A DNA stretch of 52,456 bases, filler included, from Jimgerdemannia flammicorona (GCA_003990765.1; 2 parts of 2 records of this genome joined end to end with filler, not necessarily neighbours in it), one strand, 5' to 3'; shown: positions 6,921 through 50,900, counted from the whole stretch's first letter. Numbers and translations are program-made. The notes: a model not told the origin generated them from the sequence alone.

Positions 6921-7934
6921 AAGTTAGTTGGATGGTATCTACGTAAATGTTATGAGTATCACAAAATATATTGACCACATGAGCGAAGATCGGAAAGTTG
7001 GATATTGGTTACCCTTTTCTTATTCCTAGCGTAATTAATCCACATGGATGGCTTCAAGAAAGTCGTCAGGCAGCCCATGCGGAAACGACCTCCACTGTTC
7101 GAAGAAGAAGAAAAGAAAATCGAACGTCGTGTGAATATCCGATCACGCATCGCTATTGACCACGGTCAACACTCCTTTACTCCCTCCTCCCAAGGGCTGA
7201 AGGCTTTTCGGCCTCAAGGCCTTTCTTATTCAGGGCATCAACCACTTTGAAACCTTCTCATCCATCGTCGTGTAAAGAAAGCCAGGAGTGGCGAAATCAT
7301 TTATGAACTCCAGAATAGTTGCGGTGACGGTGACGTCAAAACACAATTTGCGGGTTTATCTGCTCGGAATTTTATCCCACCCCGAGCCCTTGTACGCCTG
7401 AGACGAAGAGAAAGATGCGCCCGAGAGGATGGAGGTGAGTGAGAAGCCCAAATATGCGAGCACTGCGTCAGAATGCAATATATAAATGGCCTCTTGGAAT
7501 GCGTTTCTGGTGCGATAATCTCACACAATGCTCGTTCAGCAACAAGTGAGGAGCATAGCGTATAACTAAGCGAAAATAATATCTCACGTCCATGTAGCTA
7601 TATTGGACGACAGTAATTCCCATTTGAGGACTTTGGGTCGAGGATTGCTACACTTTACACCATTATTTAGTACCTAATCAGAATTTATTGCTATTAAAAT
7701 AAATAGCAAGAGATTCCCATGATCTCTGTGCAAACCTTCCGTTGTTACACAAGCGGATAATCTCCGCCCCTCAGCGTTTCCGACAAAAAGAGGTGACCTC
7801 AGAAATTAGGACTGCCCTTTTTTTAACCTATAAAACGAACACGAGTCTACGACTGCAACCTCGTCAACAAATATCATACCTTTCCTGCACTTGACCCTTA
7901 TCAAAACCCCTCCCCAATCCTCTGCACCAGTCTG

Positions 7935-9551
7935 ATGAATCCAGCTTTTTTTGGCTGTAAAGAGGCCCTCCATGCCCAACTCGAATCGCAACCGGAGTAC
8001 CATGCTAGCGATGCAACTCATATCCAGCAAGGTCAATCCGACTTCGAGCACACTGTCGAAGAGGACCTCGACACATACTTTGACTACGACAATTTCAGCA
8101 AAGATAAAATCGACATACCCGGTGACAGCATCTCTGACCCTCTCCAAGTTAACCTTGACTCCGATTTCAACATCGACCACGGAGATCTCCGCACCCTGGA
8201 TGGTGAAATTTATGGCATCCTCGATACCATGTCCTTCGACTTTGACAACTCGCATTTCGACATACCCGGTGACAACATCGCTGAACCTCTCCAAGTTTAC
8301 CTTGACTCCGATTCCAACATCAACCACGGAGATCCCAGCATCCTGGATGGTGAAATCTATGCCATCCTCAATGATAACAGCACGAACGATTTCGACAACT
8401 CGCATTTCGATATACCCGGTGACAACACCGCTGAATCTCTCCAAGTTAACCTCGACTCTGATCCCAACATCGACTACTCACTAAACGCACTCGGTGAGGA
8501 ATTCAACAAATGCCGCCAAGAAGATCCAAATTTCATCCAATTACTCGCCGAAGGCTTTCACATGGACGTCGACAAAGATAAACTTGACTCCCGTTTCGAC
8601 ATACCTGGTGACAGCATCGTTGAACCTCTCCAAGTTAACCCCGACTCCGATCCCAACATCGATTTCTCACCAAGCGCACTCGGTGAGGAATTCAACCCAT
8701 GGCACCACGGAGGTCACAATTTATTCCAATTATTCAGCGAAGGTGAACTCGACTTCCGTTTCAACATACCCAGTGACAGCATCACTCTCAGTGAAATTGA
8801 TATGGAGGGATTCAATCAACACAACCACGGAGATATCAATTTCAGCAACACAACCGTAGAGAATGATTTCCAATTATTCGACTCCAACACATCTAACGAA
8901 GCAATCATGGATGATGATCTCAGCGAAGACCCTACTACGTCTTGGATGGCATATCAAGTCGACAAAGTTACACAAAGTCCATCACCAACTATCACAACCG
9001 AAAATGCTCCCTCGGTACCTTCCCTTGATATTGATGCGACGCAAGAATCGATTACGCCATTCATCGCAACGCTGCCTAAATACAATCAATGTCCGGACTG
9101 TTCGCGTAGGAAGAAGCGCTGTTCTCGCCACGTCTCTTCGAAGGGAGTGGAAAGAGTTGGGCCAGGGAAGGCGTGCAGTTGGTGCAAGATGAAATCCAAG
9201 CGATGTCTTGGGGGCGTCCCGTGTGCTCGTTGCAAAAACAATGACAGGGCTTGTTTCGGAGACAATACCTATCCTACCATCATCGACGGTTTGTGCAATA
9301 ATCTGTCCGACGCAGATGAGGAGATCTCAAGGAAGGCTCTCAAGCAGCTTTATTACATTGTCGAGGACGGAAGGCGCTATGGAGTCGAGCGCTATCTGCA
9401 ATATCTAAAGGAGCACGGTGGAATATATGATATCAATCGTCCAAAACAATGGCCTTCCTCAATATATTATGACAGACTCATCTCATCTTGCGGGACTACA
9501 ACAACACCAACCTTAACACCAACCTTGACTCCAATATCGATACAGAACTAA
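7935..9551 (+). CDS. Zn(II)2Cys6 binuclear-cluster protein (putative fungal transcription factor) with acidic N-terminal repeats, 538 aa
   Basis: Intact intronless ORF. Canonical C-x2-C-x6-C-x5-C-x2-C-x6-C motif (CSWCKMKSKRCLGGVPCARCKNNDRAC) at 9174-9254. An extra C-x2-C-x6-C-x2-H motif lies at 9090-9131. Five (F/I)(D/N)IP(G/S)D-centred acidic repeats occupy ~8080-8800. TATAAAA lies at ~7830. Confidence 0.8.
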   Translation: MNPAFFGCKEALHAQLESQPEYHASDATHIQQGQSDFEHTVEEDLDTYFDYDNFSKDKIDIPGDSISDPLQVNLDSDFNIDHGDLRTLDGEIYGILDTMSFDFDNSHFDIPGDNIAEPLQVYLDSDSNINHGDPSILDGEIYAILNDNSTNDFDNSHFDIPGDNTAESLQVNLDSDPNIDYSLNALGEEFNKCRQEDPNFIQLLAEGFHMDVDKDKLDSRFDIPGDSIVEPLQVNPDSDPNIDFSPSALGEEFNPWHHGGHNLFQLFSEGELDFRFNIPSDSITLSEIDMEGFNQHNHGDINFSNTTVENDFQLFDSNTSNEAIMDDDLSEDPTTSWMAYQVDKVTQSPSPTITTENAPSVPSLDIDATQESITPFIATLPKYNQCPDCSRRKKRCSRHVSSKGVERVGPGKACSWCKMKSKRCLGGVPCARCKNNDRACFGDNTYPTIIDGLCNNLSDADEEISRKALKQLYYIVEDGRRYGVERYLQYLKEHGGIYDINRPKQWPSSIYYDRLISSCGTTTTPTLTPTLTPISIQN

Positions 9552-15432: not shown

Positions 15433-17677
15433 TTTTTTTATAGTCACTTGGACTCCGCCTTTATTACCAGTCTATGAATAAGTATACATCAACACCACCC
15501 ACTACCCAATCCCCATAGGGGGGCCCCTCCCCACCTCATGAATAAAAATCACCCTTTCACCAACTACTCCAACTCTCCCCCCACTCTGCCCACAAATTTT
15601 CTCCACTAAATGGCACCTCTGACCACCCTGTAGCCCCCAACCAAGCCACCAGCCTGTTAAGGTGTCTTCCATAAGCCTATGCCACCGCAGCAACTGGTCT
15701 CCCAAGCCCTGTCTCCTCTCATCCTCAAAAACAAATAGCCAATGACTGGCCAGCCCCACCCAAATAGCCAAAGCCCAACCCAAAGTAAGCCACTCCTTCT
15801 CTATCCCCTCTACCAATCAATCCCTCAAGTCCTCCCACCTCCCCTGTGCTTCATCTCCCCTACGCCGTACCCCCAAACATTCCCCAATTGTCCACCAAAA
15901 ATCCCCCAACACCTCACACTCTCCTAGTCAATGTTCAGGTGTCTGTACATAACCCCCCTCCTGCCCTACATTATGGCACTCCTCACAGTTGAAGCCACCC
16001 CCTATGACAAGGTGCCCCAAGTGAAAGTTGAGCATAACATTCCTCTATAGCATGCGCCACCAGACCACCCAGTACTTTGGCGGCATCCACTTTCTCACTG
16101 CAGCACTTCAGGTCCAGATACCATACCAATTCTACTCTTCGCCAATTCCAACTCCTTGCCAACCACTAGGCCACAGATCCTGGCCTGGTCCCCTTTGGCA
16201 TTCCATGCCATCCCCAATGTCGAACTTAATTAAAGGAGTGCCACCCAACAGTATACGATCCCATCTCCACATAGCCAGGTCCCAGTTCTCCTCTCCTTCA
16301 TTCCCCCACCAATGAATACTAATGTAGTGCACCCCTTCCGCAATCCCCCACCAAAATTCTTTATATCACAGTTGTTCAGTGTTCCGAAGTCCAACCAATG
16401 AGAGGAGATCACCAGTTGAGCCCCTTGGCAATGACTGCCTCTCCCAGATCTTCTGTAGCAGAGGAATCCAACCACCTCCTCTCAATTCCACTGCCCTCTT
16501 TAGCCACCATGCTCTCAAGCAGTGTAACCATTTTGGAAAGTCAACCAGCCCAAGACCACCTCTTGCCACTGGTAGGGACAAGGTCTCCCAACCAATCTGA
16601 CTCTGCCTGCCAGCCCAAATCCATCCCTTCACTGACTTCATCAATCTCTTCACCACCCAGGCTAGAAAGTTCAGATGATATACCAGGTACCACAACTTCA
16701 GCAGCCAGTAGATATTCAAGATCAAGACCTGCCCTGCCAGAGAAAATTGTCTTCCCCCCCAACTCCGCAAGGCCTCCTCCCAGATTCCAATCCTCTGCTC
16801 CCACCAAAGCCTGGGCAGAACTGACCCATAGACTGACAAGTAGATGCCTAAGTATTGCACCGCTTCACCAGTGGGGATGATTGTTCCTATAACTTCCCCT
16901 CCCACCAGACCATTGCTGAGCACCATCGTTTCACACTTATGCCAATCAGCTTAGCTCCAGAGTTCTCCTCATACCACTCTACAGTCTTCTTAAGCTCTTC
17001 AACATCAGCAATCGAACCCAAACCCACCACCATGTCATCTGCAAAGGCCCCAACTTTCTATCCTATGCCAAAGACAGAGAGCCCCACTATCCTTCTCTGA
17101 ATTCTGTCCATAAGGGGTTCCAGGGAAAGAGCATACAAAATGGGGGACAGTGGGTCCCCCTGGGGCACCCCCCTACCCAAGGGGAAAGCCACCCCTCTAT
17201 GTCTATTACACATAAGTGCAGCCCTACTCCCTTCCAGTAAGCTGACCATTGCTGACCAGAATTGGTGCAGAACCCCCATTCTATCCAAAACTTTCGCCAG
17301 CCAGACTCTTCGCACCCAGTCATATGCCTTCTCCTGGTCCAAGAAGACTAGATGCCCATCCAGTCCACAGGTCCTTGCCCCTTCGATAATGCCATGTACC
17401 CAGGCAGTGCCATCCCTGATGAGCCAACCACCCACAAATCCCCTCTGCTCAACACCCACAACTTGCTGGACCACCTTCTGTAGTCTTGCTACCACCACCT
17501 TAGTCACCAACTTTCTGTCCATATCTAGCAACATTATCAGCCACCAGTTCTTCCAATCCTCCCACCTTCCTTTGTTTTTACAAAGCAGTGTCACTAGCCC
17601 AAGGTCCTGCTCCCCCACCCATCTCTCTGTCTGTAGAATCAGGTCACACAATGCTGTCATCTCTCCCATTACCCCTG
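15433..17677 (-). mobile_element. 5'-truncated L1/Tx1-like LINE (RT pseudogene)
   Basis: TSD gactagtatgaagttatat at 15414-15432 and 17678-17696, with a short T-tract at the left end. RT motifs LLDMDRKLVTK, EQRGFV, FLDQEKAYD, GVPQGDPLSP, GAFADDMVV and YLGIYL. Several stops and frameshifts. Confidence 0.92.
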
Positions 17678-20600
17678 GACTAGTATGAAGTTATATCTCA
17701 CTAGCTTATTAAAAGTATACTAAAACTGAAACTTACTATAAAGTCAAAAAATCTATCATAAATATAAAGATAAATCTTAGAGAATCTCTACAAATATTCC
17801 TTATAAGAATTTAGAAGAGAATATATATTACTGAATTCAATGCTATCAACCAAGACATTATTGGTTCAATAATCTTTATGAATGAGATTTCTCTCAATAT
17901 TGTCCAGCATGTCTGCACTCTTAATATCAAGAGATCTGATGAATAAGTAGATATAGCTCAAGAATATTTCAATACCAAACAAGACACTACTTAGAATGAT
18001 AATAAAAGAGAAGATAAAGAAGACTACTTAGTCAAAACTCTCTTTCTCTAAAAAAAACTCAAGAGAAAAAGAATCTATAAAGAAATAAAAGAAGGATAAG
18101 AATTAAATTTAAGAGCTTAGCTCTAAACTAAACTGATTAGTTAGAAAAATTGAAAACCTCACTATATGCTAAAATCAGAGCTATCTATAAGACAGTAAGA
18201 GTTATACCCTATAAAGAAATTAAGATTACTCACTCAGAGATAATAAGAGCTATCAGATATAAGAAGAAAGAAAGTATTTACTCAGAGATAAAGTTCAATA
18301 TTTTTACAATAGATAGTTTAGATACTATATTATAAAATATAATAACAGAAGAAGTAATTGAAGAGACTTAGAACTATCAAATTAAAAGAAACTTAGTATA
18401 AGAAGACTAAAGCCCACTCTATAGAAGACTTTGAAAAAAGTAATTATGAAAGCTATAGTAATCTAGACCTATATCTGATCAAGGTTATCTCTAAGAAAAT
18501 GGTCTACTCTGTCAAAAAAGATCAATAGAAAGACTATCTAGAAGAGTAGATAAAAGTACTATTCAGAAGAAAGATAAAGAAAATAAGAAAAAACAGATTA
18601 CAGAAAACTATTTATCTGAAGATAAAGAAATAGAGTAAGAAGAACAAAAGCCCACTATCTAAAATCTAAAAAGAAGTATATCTCAAAGAATATATTCTGA
18701 GATATCTATAATAAAGCCTGAAAAAAAATTCAAAAAGTCAAAATAGAAGTCTCTTTTCTATAATTCTTATAATTGATATATATCTGCTAGAGTTTAAAAT
18801 AAATTATTAAGAACCATCAGATCTAGTACTGGCTGAGTTCTAATCCTATAATAAGAATCTGCACCAGTTACTATCCAGGCTACTGAAAGATATATCAATA
18901 TATATCTATAAGAAATATTAAATAACAGAAGGCAAAAATTCTTATTGATATAGAAGTAGCTGTCTATATTATTGTTAAAAAATTTTAGATACTCTTTAGT
19001 GGTCCATTGATAGACCATTTAATCTCAATATCATAGTAGTAGATAGAGTTCAAACTCAACTCCTAGGAGAAGTATAAAACATTACTATCTCTTAGATACA
19101 TCTAGTTCTTTATTCTAAAAGCTATTATTATCAAAGCTATTACTTATAATATAATCCTTAGTACTAACTGGATGAAGGAAATAAATATAATTATTGATAT
19201 TAGTCAACAGATGCTCAAATTTGACTATAGAGAAAAAAATTATCAAATTAAGATGACTAGCTATAAGTAATCTAAAAAGAAGAATAGCTAGTAGTAAAGA
19301 ATCTACTATAGAGAAAGAGAAAGAATCTGAAGATAAAAATAACTCTAGGCTATACTTATAAATCAATCTAGTAGATAATAGATTAGAAGATAATATATAA
19401 GTATAAGATACTATCTCTATTACAATTAAGTTATTATAGGATAAGTTTTTTTATTTTTTATTTTTTATTTTTATTTTTATTATTAAATAAGTAGACAATA
19501 GAGGAGGAGTTTTTAGCAAGATGTGATACTGATATAGTAGATATGAAGGTCAGTGGTAAAAGTTAAATAGTAAGAAATGATCAGTTTATGTAAATTTTCA
19601 CAATAGAATAGAAAGGCAAAATAAAGTGTTTTCTGAAGCAAGGTGTAATTGATCTGCAACCTGCCCACAGTACCACAATATGTGATAGTCTTTATTCAAA
19701 ATTGAAAACAAAGTTCAAGTATAAGAGATATGGATCTAATTCTGGAATTCCAGAATTAGAATGGTATATAAGTACTCAGACCTTGTCTCAATTTAAACAA
19801 AAGTCTGAATTAAGCATCATCAATCTATATATATGATAGGCCATTAAAAACCTGATATAGAAATGATTCAAAAAAGGTACTGGTCATGTAATAAAATGTT
19901 ATACATATATAAACAAATGCTAAAAATGGGACTAGACTAATAGTGATCACATATCATTATGTGATTATTACTTATAAGTTTAAAACCCTAAAAATTGTCA
20001 GCATCCAAAGGTACAGATATCAGGCCTAGAGTCTTATGACTGGAGTAGAGTAGAGCCTTGGTACTGGAGTGAGCAAAGTAAGTAGAGATAGACAGATATC
20101 ATAGAGTATAGATATATAGGCATTAGACCTAGAGCCTTATACTGAAAATTGTCTAGTGATTTTTTGTATTTTTAAATATTATATGACATGTATAGGCAGT
20201 GTAGTCTCAAGGAGAACTTAGAGTGAAACTGGTATTTGAGATGGTATTAAGAATGGTAAAACCATTCTTCTAGATGATAATTAGTTATCAGACAGTTGTA
20301 GGGAAACCAAAATGAAGCAAAGCAGTATATAGAGTCTTATCAGGCTGTTGATATAGCCATTGGGCCATGTCATATTAAATAACAAGCAGTAGGGAAGTAA
20401 AAGTAGAGTGAGGAATGGGAGAGTAGGAATAAAGGAGAGGAGTTAAAAGAGAAGTTCAAACCTTAAGCCAATCAATCAAACTCAATTGAGTGGTCACAAT
20501 ATCAACAGAGTAACCTTTTCTGTAAACTAGAAATTTGGCCAAAGACTAACACTCATCAAGCCAATTATGGCAAAATGAGCAGAGTAATAATAAGCAGTAA

Positions 20601-26185: not shown

Positions 26186-26285
26186 NNNNNNNNNNNNNNN
26201 NNNNNNNNNNNNNNNNNNNNNNNNNNNNNTTAATTAATTAANNNNNNNNNNNNNNNNNNNNNNNNNNNNNNNNNNNNNNNNNNNN
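26186..26285. other. Artificial contig-joining spacer (N44-TTAATTAATTAA-N44)
   Basis: Exactly 100 nt, symmetric, with a palindromic 12-mer that gives stop codons in all six frames. Confidence 0.97.
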
Positions 26286-29200
26286 TTTCGTCGACACCCC
26301 AGCCAGTCTTGTAAAGCAATACGATCTCGCTTTGTGCTTGTTTGTGTCCGGCCTCGGCGGCCTTTAGGAGCAACTCAAACGCCTTGCCAAAATCTTGTTC
26401 AACTCCGCACCCCCCTTGATAACATGCAGAAAGTGCAAACTGCGCCTCCAAATGTCCGTTGTTCGCAGCCTTAGTGCACCACTTAATTTGCTTTGCTAGA
26501 TCATTTGCAACACCAAATCCTACTCCGTAGCACAGTGCAGTGTAAAATTGAATTTCTGCATCGTTGGGTAGAGTAGCCTCAACGTTATCAAACCGGTGGT
26601 TGAGGAAGTCGTGTAGGCGTGGATGCAGGCTATAAAACTCGGTTTCATTCGAGATAACGTTGGGGCGCCAGTCACCGAGCATTGGGTTGACCTCGTATTT
26701 TCGTCGGTTTAGCCAGCTTCTTTGCCAAAGTTTGTGCAAATTGGTTGCCACAGGCGATGTAGCAGGGTCATGGTTCAAAGTCCTGATGACGAGGGTTGAT
26801 GTAAATGGAACATTCCATTCCCTCAACTGACCCAGGAACATTTGAAGTGCATCGTCCAAATAATCGAAGCTGTACTTGATGCAAGCGTCTATCGTTTCGT
26901 GACGCTCACAAATGAATTCCTCATTCGCAGCAGCGCTAAGTCGTTCACGGACCTTGTTGACAAATTGTTCGATGGGTTCTTTGCTGTTGTCGAACATACC
27001 TCCAAGAAGCCGAAGCGACAATGGGTGACCCTCAGTTACACGACTAAGATCAATTCCATTTTGGTCATTTGTATCTCCCACTTCTGAGCGCTGAGGAATC
27101 CACTGTTGAAAAAGTAGCATGCCTTCGCGTGGCTCTAACCCAGCCAGATCGAACAAACGTTCTTTTGGCCAACCTAACGCGACTCTCGAGGTTGCGAGAA
27201 TTTTAACATTGGCTGATAATCCCTTGAAAAAATTTATCAATGTCCTTGCTTCCTCTTTCACACCAGGTTCCCTACTTTCCATTCCTACTTTGACATCTTC
27301 CATGTTGTCGAGATAGAGCAAAATTTTCTCTTCACGTTCCAAATTTTGACGGACTTGAGATTGCTGGTCTTGATCGGTTAGGTCCTTGGTGTTGATAGCG
27401 AGAAACTCTGCAATCTTCAGGATCACTTGGCTGGATCTTGGAGCCCCAGCAAGAGAGAGCGCAAGAGCACTGCCAGAGTTGTATTGATTGAAAGCCTGAA
27501 GTGCCAATGATGTTTTGCCTATCCCGCCGAATCCTTTGATGGTGATATAGCGTTCAGGGCCTTCAAGAAGTTTCATCAAATTTTTGAGTTCGCTTGTGCG
27601 CCCAATGAAAGATCCTTCCATGCCAACATTGTCATTACGTTTACGATAAGCCATCACAAATTTGCTCCCAAGGTTATTATTTTCATTTGATGCTGTAGGT
27701 GGATTGAAAGCAGCTAGGTCAGTCAGAAAGTACGATTGATCGCATCTGTTCACTATTTAAAACAGAAAATTTCCTTCACCTGAGTTCACATTCGGGTGCA
27801 CAATCCCTATCAGAATAGTATATATATTGGATAATTATTTGGATCGGGAAAACAACAATAAAATGTATTTTTTATGCAATGGCAGGTTATGAAATTTTAA
27901 ACCTACCACAAGGAGCCTCTGTTCTAATTATCCAGTGCGACTTCTCCAGACTAGTTCGAAGGATTTCCGCGGCTTTCTTCGTCGGAACTGAAGCAGCCCT
28001 TGATCGTTCAACAAACTTGTCATCGGTATGGTTCAAGCAAAGAATAAAAGCCATTCGTTTCTCTTGAACAAGTGGTATAATTTGCTCTTTGCAAAATCGA
28101 ACGAGGCTGTCATGGCCGCATTCAGAGATGTTGTATATGAACACCACCAACCGACTATATAATGCATCTTCCCGTGGTACGACTTTGGCTAGGCTGTCAC
28201 CGTCGATACTGTCATCGTCGGTACTGTCACCGTCGATACTGTCATCGTCGATACTGTCATCGTCGATACGGTCCCCGTCGATACTGTCATCGTCGAAACT
28301 TTCACCGTCGATGCTGTCGCTGGCCATGCCATCAATTTTGAAAATTCGAAGTCCTTCATTTCCGATGGAGTAGTAGTGTATGCCAAAACCCCTGGTCTTC
28401 AGTACCCTATGAGCGTTGGCTTGAATTCTTCGGAGTTGCCATCCCAACACCATGGAATTCACTGTGATGATGGACAATAGATTTAGAACAAGTGGATAGG
28501 AGACAAACGAATGATCTTGCTCCAGTATATTACTCACCATGTTGAGATGGTCCGACCACACCAATTACAAATGTGTCATTAATCAAACCTGGGATAGGCA
28601 AGTGCAGGCGGAATTTCCACAGGGAGTTACAGAGCCTGGCGCCTTCCCTAAGTGCGAATTGCATACTGTATTCCTCATTTCGATTGGACAGTAACCCGCG
28701 ACGGTAAAGTTGTTGAAGGTTCTTCGTGATCGTCGCTCTAGAATCGATCCCATTTTTGGATCCATCGACGCACTCAACAAAATGACGAACAAATTCTAGC
28801 ACTTCTTCTGTGATTGGTCCGATGAAGAGAGAACACATAAATATAAATTGGCACTCCAAAGGTAGAAGTGTTTCGATCGTTGATCGGAAATGACTGCCGA
28901 GTTTTGTACTCAAAACCGAGTCATTCGCCAGCATTATACTGTAGTGTTCTTGGATGAGTTCCTGAAGCGACGTATCAGAATGTTGTGGTAGGCAAACCGT
29001 TCGGGCAAGGGATTTCAGAGACAGCGGATGTCCGTCTAGGAGCCTGATGAGGTCGCGCAATAACTGAGCTGTATTTTCCTCCTTCTCCATCCTCCTCCTT
29101 ACTTCAGAGTCGAGATTTCGAATAAACATCTCGGCGCCACTCTCAATATCAAAATCAGTTAAACCGTTGAGATGCATCACTTCCTCCTGTGCTGTCCAGT

Positions 29201-30873
29201 TCAAACGTTGATTCGACGTTGCAAGAATTCTTACTGCAAGATCAGGTACCGATACTACCTTCCGAAGCCAGTTCACCAAGGCCACAGCGTCGCCATCGCC
29301 CATGGCTTGTGCATGCTTCAATATATCAGCTTGATCGAGAATAAGCAAACTCGTCGGACGGGACTCGAATTTCTTGATAAGGACCCGCTCCAACATGTTC
29401 AAGTCACCAGTCAGGGCTTCCTGGAATATGACCTGACCCAGGTGCTGCAAATAGTCAATAACCGATATTGGGTGCAAAGGATCGAAACGCCAAACAAAAA
29501 TTCCACCAGGGAAGAGATGCGCCGTCCGTCTGACCACCTTCTCAGCCAACGCCGTCTTTCCCTGGCCGACGATGCCTTCAATGGTACATATTTGATGAGA
29601 CTGCTTGCTATGATGCACCATACGTCGTAGAATAGAGTGCAATTCGACAAGCTCTTTTTTGCGTCCACAAAAAGTGGAAGTTGTGGGGATTGCATCGAAG
29701 TTGTGGAGGGGCATATGGAGTTCCACCGTTGGCGAACCTTCCTCACATTTGAATGCGCCGTAATATTCACAAGACATAGACGAATAAAGAACCATGGCAC
29801 CGGGGAGATAGTATTTTTGTCGGATGTCTTTGTGATCATGCAGAAATTCACGCGCCCTCCACATCGCCATCTCTACTGTGAAACCACCGGCGAGGAACTT
29901 GTAGAAATTGGATTCGAACTTGCGGGCAAGGTCGTCTGGTATGGTACAATGTGAGCCAATGCTGTATGGAACACCATACTGGACCAAGACACGTGCGATG
30001 TCGCGGGTTTTGCAAGCCGACAGGAACGCAATTCGCAAGTTTTTGGATACACAAGTGAGGAGAGATGTGTCAACGAATTCGTGTTCGCCAGTCTCCGTTT
30101 CGAATATTAGGCATCTTGCACCCCGCTTCGATGACCCGCAATGTCCCATGAAATGAAGCACTGTGGCTGTTTTGGACTCGTTCAAGAGCAATGCGTTCAT
30201 ACGATCGACAGTAGGCGGATACACGCGCTCCAATAATACTTTTTTGGTGTTGGTGTGAAATTCGTTAACAAAGTTCTGGAACTGCTCACTCAAATGCAAA
30301 GCTGGAAGGTTTGTATTGGGATCATCAGGCAGGATGATGGGGTCTGGTACAACGGCCACAATGCGGAGCGGAAGTTTGTCCATCTGAGGCGATTCCTCCT
30401 TGCTCGTGCGCATGAACTTGCGTGTAAATGGGCGCTCGTGGACAAGGTATTTGTCACCAGAAGACACATATGCATATTCCCAGGGGATGTCGTCAAGGTC
30501 TTTGTTTTCGTTGAGCTCGAGCTGGACTGCGCACGGCGGTGGTTTCCGAATTAGCCGCTCGGCGGGAGAATCGTTTTGGAAGAGGGCGTTGAACAATCTG
30601 AGTCGTTATTTTGATAGGAATTCAAAAGTATAAGTTAGGCTGGCATTTGCCATATTTTTCGAAGTGGTTGTATTTTTCAACTTACTTTATGCCATATCTC
30701 AAGAGCAGGTTGCGCTTAGGTTCCGTGTCAAAGACCTCTATGGCAACATCTTTGCCCTCAACATCTTCTAAGAAGAAGGAATGGCTGTATTCGAGTTTTG
30801 AATTGTTTTGAAAAGAAACTAGGACCCAGACTTCACCAGTGTTATCGGTATCTTTCAACAATGATACTCGCAT
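26286..30873 (-). CDS. Multi-exon NLR-like STAND protein: CHAT (caspase-like) protease - NB-ARC - wHTH - degenerate Ras-like GTPase - NB-ARC - Sel1 repeats; 3'-incomplete, at least ~1,400 aa
   Basis: Predicted exons 30873-30686, 30597-28538, 28461-27907, (27806-27780) and 27692-<26286. Introns of 88, 76, 100 and 87 nt have donors GTAAGT, GTGAGT, GTAGGT and GTGAAG and CAG/TAG acceptors, and all preserve frame. CHAT: IPWEY, HFMGHCG, FLSACKT. NB-ARC1: FCGRKKEL, GIVGQGKT, LLILDQAD, ILATS, GHPLSL. NB-ARC2: FIGRTSEL, GFGGIGKT, LLYLDNME, ILATSR, GHPLSL. At least 2.5 Sel1 repeats (AQFALSACYQGGCGVEQDFGKAFELLLKAAEAGH). The join across 27906-27693 is less certain than the first two introns. Confidence 0.8.
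28193..28320 (-). repeat. Coding 15-nt tandem repeat (~8 copies, DSID(G/D))
   Basis: Read directly; in frame within the GTPase-like domain. Confidence 0.9.
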
Positions 30874-31829: not shown

Positions 31830-32759
<930 letters not shown>

Positions 32760-32760
<1 letters not shown>

Positions 32761-33420
32761 AACAAATTTTATTATTCTATATATAATAATATTTTAATAT
32801 ATTATTATTTTTAATTTTATTATAATATTTTATAAAAAATAAGATCAATAAAATTAATTTATTTTATAACTTATAAGTTTAATAATATAACTTTTTTAAC
32901 TACTATAAGTATAAAAGTCAATTTTATTTAATTATTTAAAATTTTAATAATATTTAAATATATTATAAAATATAATTCAAATTAAAGAATATATATTTTA
33001 TCTCTAAAGTATAAATTTAACTTTTAATATATATAATATAATATTATATTATAGTTGAAAGTTATTAATTAAAATTATTTATAATTTTAAATTTTATAAT
33101 TTTAAGATAAATAACAAATAACTATTATTAAAATTAAATTAAAATGTTAAAATAATATAAAAAAAAATTATTACTATAATATAGATACTATATATTAAGA
33201 ATAAGTTATATAATTTCTATAGAATATAAAATTAACTTAAGAATAACTTAGATAAGTTTAAATAGATTATTAAAGATTAATTTAACATTAATATAAATAG
33301 GGTTAAAATAATATAATTAATATATTTAAATTTAAATAATTAACTAAAACAATAGTTTAAAATATATTTATTAAAATATTACTCTTTTTCTCTATAATAA
33401 TATAATAGATATATATATAC
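32760..33420. repeat. Extremely AT-rich low-complexity tract (end-stage decayed repeat)
   Basis: Very few G/C; it grades out of the mutated LINE remnant on its left. Confidence 0.7.
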
Positions 33421-34999
33421 TAATAAAAGTATGATAGATTTCATGATCTTAAATACTTAATCTTCTTTAACTTTTTGGAGTCAGTATCTTTCTCTAAGAT
33501 AATTTATATTATATAAATATCTTTCAATACTTTTGATATAATTTTTAGAGAAAAAGTATTAGTAATATAATAATACATAAGAGTTCTGATAGATATGCTT
33601 GATCTGATAGACCTAGGGCCTTTGGTTGACAATATATTAGAAAGAACTATAATATAGAAATGGGTTTTTTTAGTAATAAGAGTAGATAGATTAGATGTAG
33701 TAGAAGTTAGCTACTAAGTATAAATAGTAGAGAGCTGAGACTATTGAGCTTTACTAATAAGATATAAGTAGAGCATTGGTCTGAGAGTACTCAGAATAGT
33801 AAGTCAGAGAAGAGAGAAAAGATAAGTACTAAGAGGACTAAAGAATTAATATCTAATAAAATAGATATAGAGACTAGTAGAGCTATTAGTATGAGTGAGA
33901 ATATGACTAATAATAGTATAAAAGAAATCTGAGAAGTAATGGTGAGTATAAAACTAAGAAGACAGAATATACTAGGAAAAGAAATCTAATAAATAGTATA
34001 ATGAGGCTAGTAGTAACTTTATTACTTAAGAAATTAATCTCTGAATTTATTATTAATTTATACTTCTGAGAGCTAACTATAATAGTCAAGATAGTTTGGA
34101 AACTAAATATAAGCCAGATAGCTAGAGTAGTCTCAGTAAATTTCTATAAGAGAGAATTAAGATAAAGGTTAATTAGAGAAGTAGTAATATTAATAGCTCA
34201 TATCTGAGATGAGATCTGAGAATATGTAGTTTAGTTCTTGTAAAATAAATATCTATAGTAATGGCTATTGAGATAAAGTAGAAAGTAATAGAGACTATAT
34301 TAAAGTATAATAATAGTAAATATTAGATTTTAGGTCTGAGAGAAGATCTCATCAAGATAGAAAATATATACAGATATTCAGTTTTAGCTTATTGAGAGAG
34401 TAACTATTGAGAAGACTAGAGACTAGTCTTTAGTTTTGATATAAGATACTTTAGTAATAAGATAATAAGAATAAAAAGAAGTAAGAAGAAGAAGAAGGAT
34501 CTATTAAAGATCCTAAGTATAGCAGTAATAGTATATATATGTATATGTATAATATTAATATACAAAGAGATAGTAAATAGTAAATAGATTTATATAAATA
34601 AAATAATATAAGAGAAGGTCTAGAAGAAGAATAAACAGAGAGATCTATTGATAGATATGAAGAAAATATCTACAACTAGAGCTAAAGAGGGCTTAAAAGA
34701 AGTAAAGATAAATATTTGAGCTAGAAATAGAGTAGAGGAATAGAGAGAGTATGTAGTGGAATGCAGAAAATTATGGAGCCAGCAGCTCTATAACAATTGT
34801 ATACTTGTGATCTAAAAAGAGAAGAAGAAGAGATAAGAGCTGAGCTCAGGACAAAAAGATTATAGAGAATTTAAAGATAGGAGATATGTACAAAGTCCTG
34901 TTTAGAGTATCAGATATAGCAAAAGAAGAATAGATAGTCAAAATAGAAGAGAATGAGCTCATCACCTTTCTCAGCTACTATTCAGATTATATACACTTT

Positions 35000-37900
35000 C
35001 ACAACATACTTCCAATATATTAATTAGAGAAAGATACTAAGGTTAGAGTAACTAATAAGCAAGCTGATATATGTACCAGATTAGGTAGACCTGGAGCCTT
35101 CAACTGGCAAACTATTGGATGAGAGTATAGATAAGAGATAGGGTCCTTTAGTGGTCTGAGTGGGTAAGGCAGTTTGGGCAACAGTAGCAGTACTAGAGAA
35201 GAGACAGGAGAGTAGAGAGAGAGGAACTTTGCTGATATACTAAAGGCTGAGAGATGGCCTGTGGGATCTCATAGCAGGTATGCAGAGAGGAAGGGAAAAG
35301 CAGAGAGAAGGAGAAGCAAAAGATATAGCATCTCAGCCAGGAGGAGAAAGGGCTGGTGATCTAGTAGTTAAGAGTAGAGAGGGGATTGCTGATGGTAGTA
35401 TAACTGAGAATCTGGCAAAAATCCAGATGTAGTTGCTGATGAGAGAGCTGGATTAATAGAACCAAAAAGGAAGAAAGATCTGCTAATGGTGTAATAGGGC
35501 TGGTGGTGGAACCATTACTCAAGAAGTTGATCTTGGAGTTTATGGCAACCTTGTGCTTCTGGAGCTTAGTAGTAATGGTGAGAATGGTTTTGGAGATTAT
35601 CTCAAAGTAGGTAGCTGGAGCTACCTCAGTAAAGTTTCTGAAGAGATTGTAGGAGGTTGAAGTATGGTTTGAGAAGACAGACCCATTAGAGGAAGTATTG
35701 AAATCTGGAGTAGCTGTTAGAGAGGTAGTAGTCCCTTATAGTATAGTTTTTGAGAAAGGACCCCAGAGTAGTTCAGTTACTAGTAAAGGTGATATCTATA
35801 GTAATAAAGATTGAGACAAAGAGGAGGGTAGAGGAGGTGATGGCAGAGTAGAGCAATATAGTTGATATCAGTTTCCAGATATAAAAGGGGACTACTTTCA
35901 GGATAAGAGATATAGATGTCAAGATTAGACTGACTGAGAGAGAGGCCACAGAGAAGACAAGTTACTAGCTTTTGCAAATGATGTAGTGGGCTTTTATCTG
36001 TAAGGTGTCAAGGATGAAAGAGAGTGAAGAGGAGGAGGAGGACTTGTTGGAGGCTTTGGAGCAGATAAGTAGAGTAGTAGAGCAGAGGGCAAAGGCCTGA
36101 AAGTTGTATGTAGAGTTGATACATTTAGAGAATATGGATGGAAAGCTTATTCACACTAATAAGAGGTAGTAAGAGAGAGCTCAAGAATATAAGAAGTAGA
36201 GAAAGTTACTTACAAGTATAGAAGGAGGTATAAAGAAGAATACTAGAGGTACTGAGAAGTCTAGAGATATAAAGATGAGTATCTGGCCTAGTAAGAGAGA
36301 AGAGGATACAGAGGAGGATCTGGATGGGACTGGGAAGGTGCCATATAAGGACTCATTTGCAGATAGTATGTTTGAAGTCTGGGAACCAGTCTTAGAAGAT
36401 ACCCCCTCTCTGGTCCTGCTGTGAGGGACCAGGTGGCAGAGGATGAGTTAATGTAGAGTGCTCAGCAAGTATACTTTGGAGTTCCTAATATAGCAAAAGG
36501 AAGACAGATAGTAGTGGTTAGCAAGGATGAGCTGATGGATATCCCAGAGGAGAGATGGGATGAGACTACAAGTATAGGAGCAAATACCATAATACTGGAT
36601 TTAAGAAGACCAGAGACACTAAGAGGAAAGGATATGGGAAATCTACTATGAATGAGCCAGATGGTGAATAACTTTATAGCTGAAGAGTTGGGAGAAGTAG
36701 ACCTGAGAGTGATGAGTGAGAAGTATTGTGTACAGATCCTATGTAGAGATGGGGTAGTGGAGGCACTGAAGGCAGAGGTACTTGCAATTTTCCTAGAAGA
36801 GGAGGGATATAAGATTGATAAGGAGAGAGAGGCTGAGCTGGCAGTTGTTGCTGGTGAGCAGGCTGCCTACTATTGGGCAGAATATCATGGTTTGCAACTC
36901 TGGTAAGAGGTATACCTGAAGTATTATAAGAACTTTGAGAAAAAAGAGGATGGGGAGATAGCTGAGCTTCTGGTTGGACTGGAGACAAAGTTGGCTGAAG
37001 AGGAGAAATTGGTTGCTGAATATAACTTAAACTTGATACAGAAGGAGATGAATGTAGATTTATATAGGATGAGCTTGATAATTAATATTATTTCTTATAA
37101 ACAGTATAACTAATATTTTCTCTCTGAATGTGAATGAGTTATGTGGAGATCTGAGCAGTATAAGAACATTTTTACTTGGCTTAAGAGATTGGATGCTGAT
37201 CTCTTTCTACTATAGGATATATAGTATGAAGATAAAGAGGATTAGATAGAGTTGACTAGACAATATAGAGGACTATAACTTGAATTAGCAAAGTGGCAAT
37301 TCTGATACAGAGGGGTAAAGGATATTTAGGTGGAATCAGGAGCTGTGGTAACCATTTGATATGGAGAGAATGACATTGACCTGGGTAGGAGCCAGTGAGA
37401 GATAGCTCTTACTACTACTTTATAGCTAGGGGTGAGTAGATTTTGTAGATTGGGGATCTTTTGGAGGAGAGTATTCTCTTGTAGGAGAGAGTAGATGTTC
37501 TGGGAAGTAACTTTAATATAGTGCAGAATCTTCAGTGAGATAGAACAGATGGAGAGAGGGGTACAGATGGGAGAAGTAGTGATCTAGATACATGAGAGAA
37601 GATAGAGAACCTTAGCTCTTTAGGGGATATAGGCAGAATATGGAGGAGAGAAAAAGGATCTATATATACTGGATGAATAGAAGAGGTATGAGGATTGACT
37701 GGATTCTGACAGCTGAATGCTGGAGTGTGGATATTTAGAAGACTCTAGAGGTAAAGTGGTGCCTGTGGTCAGATTACTGGGGACTATTAGTGTAGGAGTA
37801 GTTTGGGGAGAGTGAAGATTGACCCAGACATTAGTACCTTAATACCTCTCTGCTGACTGAGAAGATATTGTTGGATCTATGAGTAGAGGATATCCAAGTG

Positions 37901-39054
37901 AAGATTACTAGCTGAATACATAAGGGATCACTAGTGAGTGTCTGTTGAATATAGTTAAAAGAGACTATAAGGGTTTACTGAGAGGAGCTGGTAGGGATAC
38001 TAGGAGACAGAGAAGAAAAAGAGTAAGATACATATGGTTCAAATTAGTTATTAGATTATAGATAGAATAGGTAGATTTGATAACTTCTGAAGAGGTGGAT
38101 GATTGGAGGTTAGAGTGAGCAAAATTAGAGATGGTGGAGCTACAACAGATACTAAAAGATGAGGAAAAGATACATATGAAAGAAATGGCAGCCAAGCTGA
38201 GGTAGCAGAGGATTGAGGAGGGGGAGAGGCCAACTAGGTACTTATCAAGGCTCCTCTAGGCCAAAAGGGTGTGACATCAATGGCAAGAGATCCTTGATGT
38301 AAAGGGAGAAATAGTGTATGGAATATAACAGATCTTAGAGATATTGAAGAGGAGATGGATGGAGGAGTTTGTAGAGTAAGAAAGAAGAGAGTGCTGATGA
38401 AGAGGTGATTGGAGACATATTGGACAATTTGGAACTGCTGCAAGGAGAGAGTCTTAGAGACTTGATCCTACCAGTCCAAGAGGAGGAGATCTAGAGAGTT
38501 CTTGTGACAACTAAGCTTGAGACAGCACTAGGAGAGAATGGGTTATCTTGAGATATTTGAAAGAAGATAGTGAAGGTCTCTAGAGTATTAGGAGAGATGG
38601 CAGCCCTCTGTGACCTTATTCTTCTGATGGTGAGTAGGTATGAGAGCAGAACTTAGGGCTGGTGGTTTTGTTGTCAAAGATAAGGAGAAGAGGAAGAACT
38701 AGAAGAACTGGAGACCAATCATACTTCTGGATATAGATAGAAAGATGGTGATTAAGATTATTTTCATAAGACTACAGAAGATTACCTAACAGGTGCTAGA
38801 TAAGGAGCAGTAGAGCTTTGTGAGAGACAGGCTTATTAGATATAGGACAGACTGGATTTATAGTATTGTTGGAGAGGTATAGAATTGTGGATTGGATGGA
38901 AGACTGGTCTTTTTGGACCAGGAGAAGACCTATGATCATGTTTAGCAGATATGGCTGGGTAAGGTGCTGGATTGAATTAATATTCTCTCATAATTTCAAG
39001 CTTCTATATTGAATCTGTTGTAGGACAGTAGGGTGGTACTGTTGTGTAATAGTC
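35000..39054 (+). mobile_element. Decayed L1/Tx1-like LINE (ORF1 region, APE, N-half of RT), cut off mid-RT
   Basis: APE remnants DADLFLL* (~37192) and VLGSNFNIV (~37497). RT remnants GEMAALCDLIL, NWRPIILLDIDRK and FLDQEKTYD are homologous to 17058-17669. The sequence stops before the QGDPLSP motif, at the first TTAGGG tract. The left boundary is approximate. Confidence 0.8.
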
Positions 39055-47945: not shown

Positions 47946-50900
47946 GGGATAGGGTTAGGCTTAGGCTTCAAGTAAGAATTTATTTATTGTAGAGAAGACA
48001 AGGTACATTAGAGCAATAAAAGGCAAAGACTCCTAAGATGAGAGAAGTAAAGCAAGGCCAGTAAAGTAAATAACTAGCTAAGAAGAACAAAACAGAGGCC
48101 AGAGAGGTGACCACCCAATGGACGGGCTGGATAAAACTATTTTGTCATGGCTGTAAAGATAATAAATGCGAAAAGTAAAGAAAAGGAAGGCTAAAATATA
48201 ATACACGTTCGCCTGGCACCAACTACATGATCATTGACAACTAAATACCAAATGACTGATATGAGATGAATAACTCAACGTACTCCCAACAATGAGAGAA
48301 CCAACCAAGGCGGATGAGGGAAAAGAAGAAAGTAAAGAAAATATATAATTGCTTGATCACCTAAGTATCTTCATAATCTCGGTCAGGCAGAACCCAACTA
48401 TGAGATGGCCACCAGAATTATAAATAGTATCAATAGTATGATAGGCCATCTCGTAAAGATCATGAAGAGGGTAGGCATGAAGTTCTTCCAGCCATTCATC
48501 ATTGGTAAACCAATCAAGCTATTTACCTCGATCAGAAGTACCTTGGAAAGCTGAATAAGAACCAACAAGAAGACTGCACCTAGGGAGATGGCTATAATGA
48601 AACTTATCTCCACAGGGGCAGGGGTGGGGTTGGCCAAAATAGCCATAATGCCAGGTGAGCACAGTGCGCACCAGCTAGAGGGGGATGGAGAGAATATGGT
48701 CAGTACCCCACAACTGCAAGTGGTCTTTGGGGGTGATATACCAAATGAGAGCCTGAGAGGAGGAGGCCCATTCCTGCAGCAGGTGATCCCGAAGGAAGGA
48801 CTGGAGGAAGAAGCAGAGTGAGCAAGTCTTGTGGACCAGAGGATGAAGATCCCAGTACTAGTCGAGGAAGTGAAGGTCCAACGCTGGAACTTGTCAATGA
48901 TAGAACCTGGGGAATGTGTGACAAAGCACTTGCTAAGGGGGCCGATGGGGTTGTTGCCTGACTTGCTACACCAATCCAGATGGGCTTGAAACATGTAGCA
49001 GAGGTCAGATATATGATGAAGGAAAGAGGGGAGGCCAAGAATCGAACTACCAAGCAAGGGACGGCCAGAAAACCCAACTGCCCAAGCAAAAGTGTCATCA
49101 AAGACCTGTTTAGGATACTTTAACATCTGAAGCCCCATAGTAGTAGCCGGATAGAAGGCTCGTAGAAGGGGGAGGCCATACTCCAGCTGAGGCCTGATGA
49201 ATGTTCATATGATGGCCAGCTTGACCATTGGCAACCAGAGAGGACCATGGGCATGACAGAACCCCAAAGTTCATTCCATCTTTACTATATTCTGTAATGC
49301 TAGACTGATAAAGTCAAACCCTTTATTAGTATTTAGTACACCCAGGTACACATAGGGGGGGGGTCATGGGCAGGGTTCACCCCCAATCAGTACAGTACAG
49401 TCAGCAGGGCCAATATAACCACACTTCTTAGAGTTGAGCTCTATACCATTTGCCCAAAGCCAGTCTTCACCGAAGTCGACCATCCTCTGTCCTTCTACAG
49501 CAGTGTGGGGGATGAGGGAGATATCATCAGTAAAGAAAAGCCTGAGGGGGAAGTCATACTCCTTGAACTGTTCATCAAAGGAGGCAGCAAGGGGGTCGAT
49601 AAAGACATCAAACAACCAAGGGGAGAGGAGGGAGCCCTGGAGGCTACACTTAGTGGGGACTGAAGGGGTGATGAGGCCATTAACAACCATCTAATAGGAA
49701 CAGTGGTTGAACAGGCTTTAGATAATGCTGAGGAGGGCCGCATTGGCACCTTGTACCTCAAGTCGGAAAAGAATGAGTTTGAGAGGGACTCAGTCATACA
49801 TCTGCTGGAGGTCAAGAAAGACATGGTGGCCCCATCTCTTAGCCCACATATCATGTGATAGCAAGACATGAGAGAGGGACAAGAAGTGGGTTCGGAGCTA
49901 CCTTGGCAGCACAACATTTCTGTTTGACTACTTCAGCTCTTAACGTAACTTTCCAAACACTGCTCGAAGAGTCTACGAAATATTTCAGTCAGAGCAATGG
50001 AGTGAAATCCATCAATTATGCGCAATTCCTCCTTCTTAGGGACCAGGGTGATAATGGCTAAGTTCCAGTGGTGGGGAGTAAGCCCCCAGACCATACATAT
50101 CTAGAAGAAGAATGATAGAGCCTTCGACAGGCTACAGGGGGCTTCCTTCTCACCTGCCATCACCTGAAGGATCCAGACATGTAAGGAGTTGGCTCTACAT
50201 GCCTTCTAGAGGAGGTAGCCGCTGATAGCCCTCCAAACCACAGGCTGGTCAAACCAAGACTGCAGTCCAAGAGCACCCACACCAAGAGAGAAGATATCCT
50301 CAGAGTCATTGAGATGGAGAGAGACATCTGGTTGGCCAAAGATAGTGGTGAAGTGAACAACCACATCATCGAACACCAGGATATTGGAGGAGTGAGATTT
50401 GAGGGGTGCAAGGAGAGTGGAGCGGTACACTCGCTTGAATTCACAAATGGTATCAGAGACCGAAGATGTACTACGAAGAAGGTCCTGCTGAGGGAGTGGC
50501 ACTACCCTGATCTCTCTTGTATCATACGAGCCAAGAATGTCCTCACAAACTGACTATAGACCAGAGGTCAAAAAGGCATCAAGAGAATCCACAAACTGTT
50601 GGCGATCTTCCATAGAGCAAAAGTCAGCAATATGGTCTCTGATAGAATAGATGGACCTGACAACAGTATCGTAAATAATATCTGCTGATTCCCAGAGGTG
50701 AGCTTGAATGACCAGATCAGTCAGATATCTCACAGAGTAATGACAGATACTAGCCAAGACAGTGACTGGCGAGGGGGAGAAGAGAAAGGAGACAGTGAGG
50801 AGGGAGGGGTGGTTGGAAGTGACAGGAGGGGTGGAGCAGATGAGGGACGCATGGAGGGACATAGTGGCAAATGCATGATCAACACATGTAGATCCAGCCA

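Follow-up and report, generated by a model that had tools for sequence, protein, structure and literature searches.

A 52,456-nucleotide (nt) stretch of DNA from the fungus Jimgerdemannia flammicorona (GCA_003990765.1), hereafter called the window, carries on its minus strand, from 30873 down to 26287, what is very probably one spliced gene. It is probably a gene of the NOD-like receptor (NLR) type whose best named relatives are found in Endogone (Mucoromycota). The predicted protein comprises, in this order, a small N-terminal domain, a CHAT domain, a first nucleotide-binding oligomerisation domain (NOD1), an alpha/beta domain, a second such module (NOD2) and Sel1 repeats. This agrees with the NLR plan of an N-terminal effector (CHAT), a central NOD and C-terminal repeats (Sel1), and departs from it in having two NODs and an extra domain between them. 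What is new is a CHAT-NLR whose NOD has been duplicated and into which a domain of uncertain fold has been inserted, found in a lineage for which few NLRs have been documented.

The gene is divided into five exons, one of them optional, which are joined in frame by GT-AG introns of 76–100 nt, and a scripted check of the spliced frame gave 0 stops over 1412 codons with the mini-exon and 1403 codons without it. Since this 4.2-kb frame stays open over five exons and matches homologs along its whole length at 42–52% identity (BLASTP), a chance origin is not plausible. The N-terminus, MRVSLLK, agrees with the starts of the homologs P0001, P0003, P0005 and P0020. The original prediction, made from the sequence without database searches, had built the gene from four open reading frames (ORFs; 30682-30873, 28530-30596, 27887-28564 and 26230-27753), and all four are present except for the 3' limit of the last one, which cannot extend to 26230, as the genuine sequence ends at 26286 and is followed by N letters and a linker with stops. 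It had also proposed that the donor at 27906 fits the acceptor at 27693 with or without the mini-exon of 27 nt, and the two open frames agree with this. If the mini-exon is used, all four introns fall within 76–100 nt, while its omission leaves one intron more than twice the length of the others. Phase 1 is shared by introns 2, 3a and 3b, and the lengths of exon 3 (555 nt) and of the mini-exon (27 nt) are divisible by three; therefore, either could be skipped in frame. Both versions have a parallel among Endogone gene models, as P0038 contains a segment of mini-exon length ending in ..PS-AS, similar to ..NS-AS in the window, and P0142 is without this segment. BLAST scores of the two window versions (290 versus 288 bits with P0038 and 147 versus 153 bits with P0142) favour neither of them decisively.

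The unity of the gene is supported by single BLASTP alignments to homologs that bridge every junction. The first junction is bridged, from residue 1 onwards, by P0003, P0005, P0019 and P0020, the second by P0148 and P0167, and the third, leading from the exon-3 domain into exon 4, by P0038 and P0142, where P0038, P0142 and P0148 come from the annotation of Endogone sp. FLAS-F59071 and are partial gene models. In addition, two public sequencing runs, X1 and X2, were found via shared words (shares 0.19 and 0.15), with the RNA type only guessed. In contigs of both runs a single letter separates 28460 from 28538, which corresponds to the exact loss of intron 2. At the mini-exon, an X2 contig with a depth of 212 connects 27807 to 27912 with 4 letters between, and an X1 contig connects 27805 to 27918 with 12 letters between, so that both are 100 nt under the genome length; the side of the X2 contig at the mini-exon is 28 letters long. 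This shortening fits the removal of intron 3a along with use of the mini-exon. These contigs must be taken to represent paralogs or alleles and not this locus, because they carry other letters at the joints. The ORFs of unspliced homologs point in the same direction: P0001 and P0004 end with ..DGE and ..DGK where the window reads ..HGE-stop at the GTGAGT donor, P0002 runs a few residues past the donor position (..NGELYI), and in most of 33 homologous exon-3 ORFs the frame ends a few residues past a conserved TE.P.G, as would be expected of a common donor site.

Since homolog alignments bridge every junction and paralog contigs are found without the introns, one gene is much likelier than a linked pair, in line with the single spliced gene that had been predicted. 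In such a linked NLR pair, the first of two adjacent genes would encode an executor with CHAT, NOD1 and the exon-3 domain and would run to the stop at 27889-27887, while the second, starting from the ATG at 27654, would encode a sensor with NOD2, Sel1 and ankyrin repeats. Although the frame of the unspliced exon 3 does close at 27887 and the ATG at 27654 is in frame, this arrangement would leave just about 230 nt for a terminator and a promoter. The ORF calls P0033, P0034 and P0035 start near the NB-ARC domain, but they say little in this respect because they were made on unspliced contigs. While P0019 and P0020 are paralogs in which CHAT-NOD1 has repeats of its own, and while a transcript of the exact locus is not among the X1 and X2 contigs, the Endogone models P0038 and P0142 run unbroken from the exon-3 domain into NB-ARC, the donor past TE.P.G is common to most of the 33 homologous exons, and the contigs of both runs are exactly 100 nt shorter at 27807-27906. 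Two adjacent genes are thus improbable.

Some contig joints in the same region were set aside. Neither the joint from 27540 to 27906 nor that from 27623 to 27912 was counted as splice evidence, as the letters between their sides are unknown. One contig type (depth 204 and 509, X1/X2) matches 26701-27068, continues with 17 other letters and then 27488-27540, and jumps from there to 27906. The joint from 27068 to 27488 has no GT-AG ends and was taken for a differently built paralog rather than for splicing; this contig type looks like a paralog without most of the NB-ARC core.

Table 1. Features of the gene and of the adjoining assembly join, in window coordinates.
Feature	Position	Strand	Remarks
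Exon 1	30686..30873	-	ATG at 30873-30871; codes for the N-terminal 62 residues and two bases of the next codon
Intron 1	30598..30685	-	88 nt, GTAAGT..CAG, phase 2
Exon 2	28538..30597	-	rest of the N-terminal domain, CHAT, NOD1, first strand of the next domain
CHAT (caspase-like) protease domain	29829..30506	-	Pfam PF12770
NOD1, STAND/NB-ARC-type NTPase	28600..29672	-	Walker A GIVGQGKT 29576-29553, LLILD, ILATS-N, GHPLSL
Intron 2	28462..28537	-	76 nt, GTGAGT..CAG, phase 1
Exon 3	27907..28461	-	555 nt; alpha/beta domain
15-nt tandem repeat, 8.3 copies	28194..28318	-	acidic pentapeptide insert SIDGD / SIDDD inside exon 3
Intron 3a	27807..27906	-	100 nt, GTAGGT..TAG, phase 1; valid if the mini-exon is used
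Optional mini-exon	27780..27806	-	27 nt; codes for IVHPNVNS and split codons; both ends phase-compatible
Intron 3b	27693..27779	-	87 nt, GTGAAG..CAG, phase 1
Single-intron alternative to 3a/3b	27693..27906	-	214 nt, GTAGGT..CAG
Exon 4	26287..27692	-	NOD2 (NB-ARC) and Sel1 repeats; ends at the assembly gap at 26286
NOD2, NB-ARC	26863..27579	-	Walker A GFGGIGKT 27534-27511, LLYLD, ILATSR, GHPLSL
Sel1 repeats, at least two matched stretches	26287..26556	-	series cut by the gap
Assembly join	26186..26285	.	44 N (26242-26285), TTAATTAATTAA, 44 N (26186-26229)

The Pfam profile of CHAT, which has a cut-off of 24, recognises the domain with 50.2 bits (E 3.3e-13) over positions 32-270 of its 289, and the profile of the family, A1, also finds 8tl0_A, a CHAT protein of solved structure, with an E-value of 2.4e-6. 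The motifs HFMGHCG (30155-30135, with HFMGHC at 30155-30138) and FLSAC (30026-30012) hold H152 (in GH) and C195 (in SAC) of exon 2, both of which lie in columns with a conservation of 90% or more in an alignment of 11 family members and which presumably form the catalytic pair of the CHAT clan. The CHAT protease with its His/Cys dyad was thus rightly called in the original prediction. One of the two residues has been lost in the paralogs P0002 (GYC for GHC) and P0004 (SAS for SAC), which probably are protease-dead members of the family.

The two predicted NB-ARC-type modules, each with an intact Walker A motif, are likewise present and homologous to each other, with NOD2 recognised by Pfam and NOD1, which stays below the Pfam cut-offs, by profile and BLASTP. 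NOD2 exceeds the PF00931 cut-off of 23.5 with 36.8 bits (E 3.3e-9), in a match that covers positions 12-247 of the 248 in the profile. It also matches the NB-ARC domain of NRC1 in the PDB (E 1.5e-4) and contains in order the motifs that we take to be Walker A, Walker B, TSR (with its arginine as sensor 1 of NB-ARC) and a GxP-type motif. For NOD1, the family profile A1 matches the Apaf-1 NB-ARC with an E-value of 4.5e-4, and BLASTP finds the NB-ARC region of the bacterial CHAT-NB-ARC proteins P0012, P0040 and P0041 with 73-74 bits (E ~1e-17). Both modules align with residues ~355-640 of these bacterial proteins, NOD2 better than NOD1 (134 versus 73 bits), with 36.6% identity between NOD2 and P0012. 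To each other they align over 349 residues with 23% identity (E 3e-6), and the spliced protein contains two copies each of GxxxxGKT, GHPLSL and ILATS. A MAFFT alignment of 18 modules (7 NOD1, 6 NOD2 and 5 bacterial) shows the arginine of TSR in all six NOD2 and all five bacterial modules, and in none of the seven NOD1 modules, which have N, H, F or Y instead. In the same alignment, NOD1 retains (F/W)PGG beside the P-loop, and NOD2 retains TSR together with GHPLSLRLLGG. Each copy thus keeps different ancestral marks, and the simplest reading is an internal duplication of one bacterial-type NB-ARC, followed by faster divergence of NOD1.

The domain between the two NODs, encoded by exon 3, had been described as a pseudo-GTPase, and in this firm form the assignment is weakly supported, as there is no match to a hidden Markov model (HMM) and the fold and language-model signals are weak. 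A full HMMER scan with exon 3 returned 53 proteins at E <= 0.001, about 33 of which are genuine exon-sized homologs; the remaining matches were low-complexity hits on its acidic repeat and were excluded by eye. An AlphaFold model with the homologs as alignment reached a predicted local distance difference test score (pLDDT) of 70.6 and shows an alternation of helices and strands, and a model of the Endogone homolog P0148 that includes the preceding strand consists of a strand, a helix, three strands, a helix, a strand, a helix and a strand. MAFFT left the C-terminal end of exon 2 unplaced beside P0148, so that its row brought no gain for the second fold. The exon-3 model has as its top structural match a Rag-like GTPase (Z 6.5, root-mean-square deviation 3.1, 103 residues), and the same GTPase comes out on top for the P0148 model with Z 5.5 over 99 residues, which does not sharpen the match; both values are below 8 and are equalled by AAA+ proteins and chitinases, and a Foldseek search of the PDB with each of the two models gave no match at E <= 0.001. 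The order of strands and helices in the exon-3 model resembles a G domain. From the small GTPases of the Rag/Roc type that are found in large proteins (LokiRag 9m28_A, LRRK1 8fac_A), exon 3 differs in the low Z, in matching no HMM and in the absence of the P-loop lysine. The G1 P-loop GxxxxGK[ST] is not found in exon 3, where the spliced sequence reads GPSQHG-VNS, without lysine, and paralogs have IPSEDG, IPLENG or IPHEDG at this position. Further weak hints come from the nearest Atlas clusters, which are MMR_HSR1 and dynamin GTPases at 0.81-0.87 (the level of a lead), and from the family profile of exon 3, whose best PDB match is the GPN-loop GTPase 1 with a weak E-value of 0.18 (LPFILCL-H-D against LPFIVVMNKTD). 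Of 34 scanned members of the exon-3 family, one touched RsgA_GTPase (E 0.033). We lean towards a degenerate GTPase-like domain. Within the family, the acidic insert of exon 3 belongs to the window copy alone, as no residues of the other 33 aligned homologs align to most of it. One X2 contig is shorter at this repeat by 105 nt (7 units), which suggests copy-number variation.

At the C-terminal end, the predicted Sel1 repeats are borne out by PF08238, with 44.7 bits against a cut-off of 30.7 in 2 matched stretches, and by matches of exon 4 to solved Sel1-repeat proteins with E-values down to 7.9e-35. The gene is cut at this point by a contig join, in which the linker between the N runs has stops in all frames. 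Its 3' end is artificial, and the DNA left of the join belongs to another contig. Directly left of the join a long poly(T) run is found on the plus strand, and the two sides may not be genomic neighbours. The closest relatives of exon 4, P0033, P0034 and P0035 (42-52% identity), align as far as the gap and extend past it by ~230-310 more residues of Sel1 and ankyrin repeats. By analogy to them, the gene may have lost more Sel1 and ankyrin repeats at the contig end; neither a match to the tails of these relatives nor any ankyrin-coding sequence was found elsewhere in the window. The cut C-terminus and the continuation of the relatives into ankyrin repeats were overlooked in the original prediction.

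Judged by its sequence, the gene is a member of a large paralog family. Two of the paralogs, P0019 and P0020, have a CHAT-NOD1-ankyrin architecture and are 45-46% identical to the window protein over its residues 1-728; they share its start, CHAT and NOD1, and differ in passing directly from NOD1 to ankyrin repeats within one ORF, without the exon-3 domain, NOD2 and Sel1. The sequencing runs contain 435 (X1) and 272 (X2) pieces that are at least 85% alike to the gene, just 36 and 25 of which are at least 99% alike; these pieces stem mostly from paralogs, and none of those listed covers the whole gene. No second family member was found in the window. The large size of the family would also suit a decaying or non-functional member of an expanded paralog family with fast turnover, lying in a repeat-rich region and either open by chance or recently inactivated. 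The loss of the catalytic His in P0002 and of the Cys in P0004, and the presence of reverse-transcriptase fragments in the window, can be read in this way too, but in the gene itself 1412 codons are free of stops, the catalytic and P-loop motifs are all intact and all splice sites are canonical. Its incompleteness in the assembly, which would likewise suit a decaying gene, goes back to an assembly join rather than to a mutation. Decay is therefore the least probable of the alternatives considered here, and a very unlikely one.

The nearest relatives outside fungi are bacterial (Ktedonobacter, Herpetosiphon and an Ardenticatenia metagenome-assembled genome) and are collinear with the gene from the N-terminus at 24-32% identity. 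These bacterial CHAT-NB-ARC-TPR proteins (TPR, tetratricopeptide repeat) of the Chloroflexota type, which include P0021 of Ktedonobacter robiniae as well as P0012, P0040 and P0041, share its order of N-terminal domain, CHAT and NB-ARC, with 30-32% identity over 77-93% of exon 2, and have the HFMGH, GHPLSL and (F/W)PGG motifs in common with the window gene. Both NODs of the window gene align to their single NB-ARC. In contrast to the window gene, they have one NOD and TPR, and are without introns, the exon-3 domain, Sel1 and ankyrin repeats. A metagenome scan with the alignment A1 yielded 23 loci, one of which is of the fungal type (L001, 1501 nt, 42% identity); the others are bacterial relatives with 23-33% identity and give no information on the fusion.

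Among described systems, CHAT-carrying NLRs of Dikarya and clusters of CHAT and gasdermin genes have been reported (PMC10197012). These NLRs resemble the window gene in carrying an N-terminal caspase-like CHAT domain on a receptor made of NOD and repeats, with ankyrin as one type of sensor, whereas the tripartite plan described there has one central NOD. Some of them cluster with gasdermin genes; for such a two-gene cluster a gasdermin-like gene within about 10 kb of the protease gene was sought, and none was found beside the window gene among the window ORFs, which represent spliced genes in fragments. Proteins with more than one nucleotide-binding module per chain have been described too, namely the wheat NLR WTN1 and others with tandem NB-ARC in plants and, in a survey of Sordariales, sequences with multiple NB domains in three NLR orthogroups (PMC12258605). 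The accessible descriptions of these proteins, on which the comparison is based, mention no CHAT, other repeats (leucine-rich repeats in plants) and no domain between the NB modules, unlike the window gene. Hence, the claim of an unusual double-STAND receptor stands as regards its two modules and was overstated as regards their rarity, given that multi-NB NLRs of plants and Sordariales are in print. For the lineage itself, two surveys report no NLR matches in Mucorales, chytrids and microsporidia (Dyrka et al., PMC4986451) and no NLRs in six new genomes and 14 NCBI Mucoromycotina proteomes (Muszewska et al., PMC7928374). In the open-access literature, supplements aside, no paper was found on NB-ARC, NACHT or CHAT domain genes in Endogonales.

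From the analogy to known NLRs we infer an immune or cell-death function. A possible course of events would begin with the C-terminal Sel1/ankyrin repeats sensing a ligand or a modified self protein, upon which NOD2, which has kept TSR, would open with nucleotide exchange and drive oligomerisation together with NOD1, which has lost the arginine. Oligomerisation would bring the N-terminal CHAT domains together, and the clustered domains might then cut a target, with cell death or a different conflict response as the outcome. In one and the same chain, the NODs may amount to a sensor fused with its helper. A wider proposal, which is put forward tentatively and with clearly less than even chances, is that Endogone-related, early-diverging plant-associated fungi possess an expanded repertoire of NLR-like genes with a CHAT-NB-ARC core, and that outside fungi this core has its closest kin in bacteria (Chloroflexota-type). 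In this repertoire, intragenic duplication of NB-ARC would have produced a sensor (NOD2, with sensor 1 kept, gating on Sel1/ankyrin) and a helper (NOD1, with sensor 1 lost, as protease scaffold) in cis, with a dead GTPase-like cassette between them whose phase-1 introns would allow in-frame skipping or shuffling. If it is true, a lineage of Mucoromycota has an NLR-like repertoire, as opposed to the surveys that reported none in Mucorales (PMC4986451) and in the Mucoromycotina proteomes examined (PMC7928374). If the two NODs do split the work into a ligand-gated switch and a protease scaffold, the protein would unite naturally, in a single chain, what plants and animals have as sensor/helper pairs of NLRs, and would be a compact system for studying how NODs activate a caspase-like protease. 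Furthermore, the collinearity with bacterial CHAT-NB-ARC-TPR proteins bears on the question whether fungal NLR cores were inherited or acquired.

Several observations speak against a single NLR-type receptor gene or against the division of labour proposed for it and call for caution. None of the contigs or reads listed comes from this locus itself and runs over the junctions, the bridging contigs being paralogs or alleles, the Endogone proteins are partial, predicted models, and no single record contains all the domains in one protein. The C-terminus is missing from the assembly, exon 3 matches no Pfam or NCBIfam family, and NOD1 is under all Pfam cut-offs (AAA_22 25.4/27, NACHT 18.9/26.7, NB-ARC 16.9/23.5). 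The direct passage of NOD1 into ankyrin repeats in P0019 and P0020 indicates that NOD1 can be the sole NOD of a protein, and therefore weakens a pure helper role. Finally, neither a gasdermin nor another candidate substrate was found at E <= 0.001 among the 90 window ORFs of at least 90 amino acids (aa), a set in which spliced genes appear as fragments and which is limited by the end of the contig at the gene's 3' side. The last of these points would also suit a real single gene that is not an immune or cell-death receptor and instead encodes a signalling scaffold of the STAND type, with a protease that would process a substrate related to development or symbiosis, all the more so as the immune function of the gene is drawn from analogy and bacterial STAND NTPases with CHAT occur in largely uncharacterised roles. 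Such a scaffold is unlikely, since the order of effector, NOD and repeats, the expansion of the family and the variation of its C-terminal repeats between ankyrin alone and Sel1 with ankyrin are marks of NLR repertoires as described in PMC10197012, an argument that is itself one of analogy. An NLR-type receptor thus stays the preferred reading of the gene.

In the remainder of the window, Pfam gave nothing at E <= 0.001 for the longest other ORF, which lies at 7827-9548 on the plus strand and measures 574 aa between stops. Among the 90 ORFs, two fragments on the minus strand match the reverse transcriptase family RVT_1, at 17061-17690 with 58.7 bits and at 49367-49690 with 32 bits, and are retroelement remnants. 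Just upstream of the gene (31860-34000 and 34000-38000), extended runs of poly(T)/poly(A) and 2 kb of DNA with 20% G+C are followed by a region in which the plus strand shows a strong G-over-C skew of 0.42-0.47.

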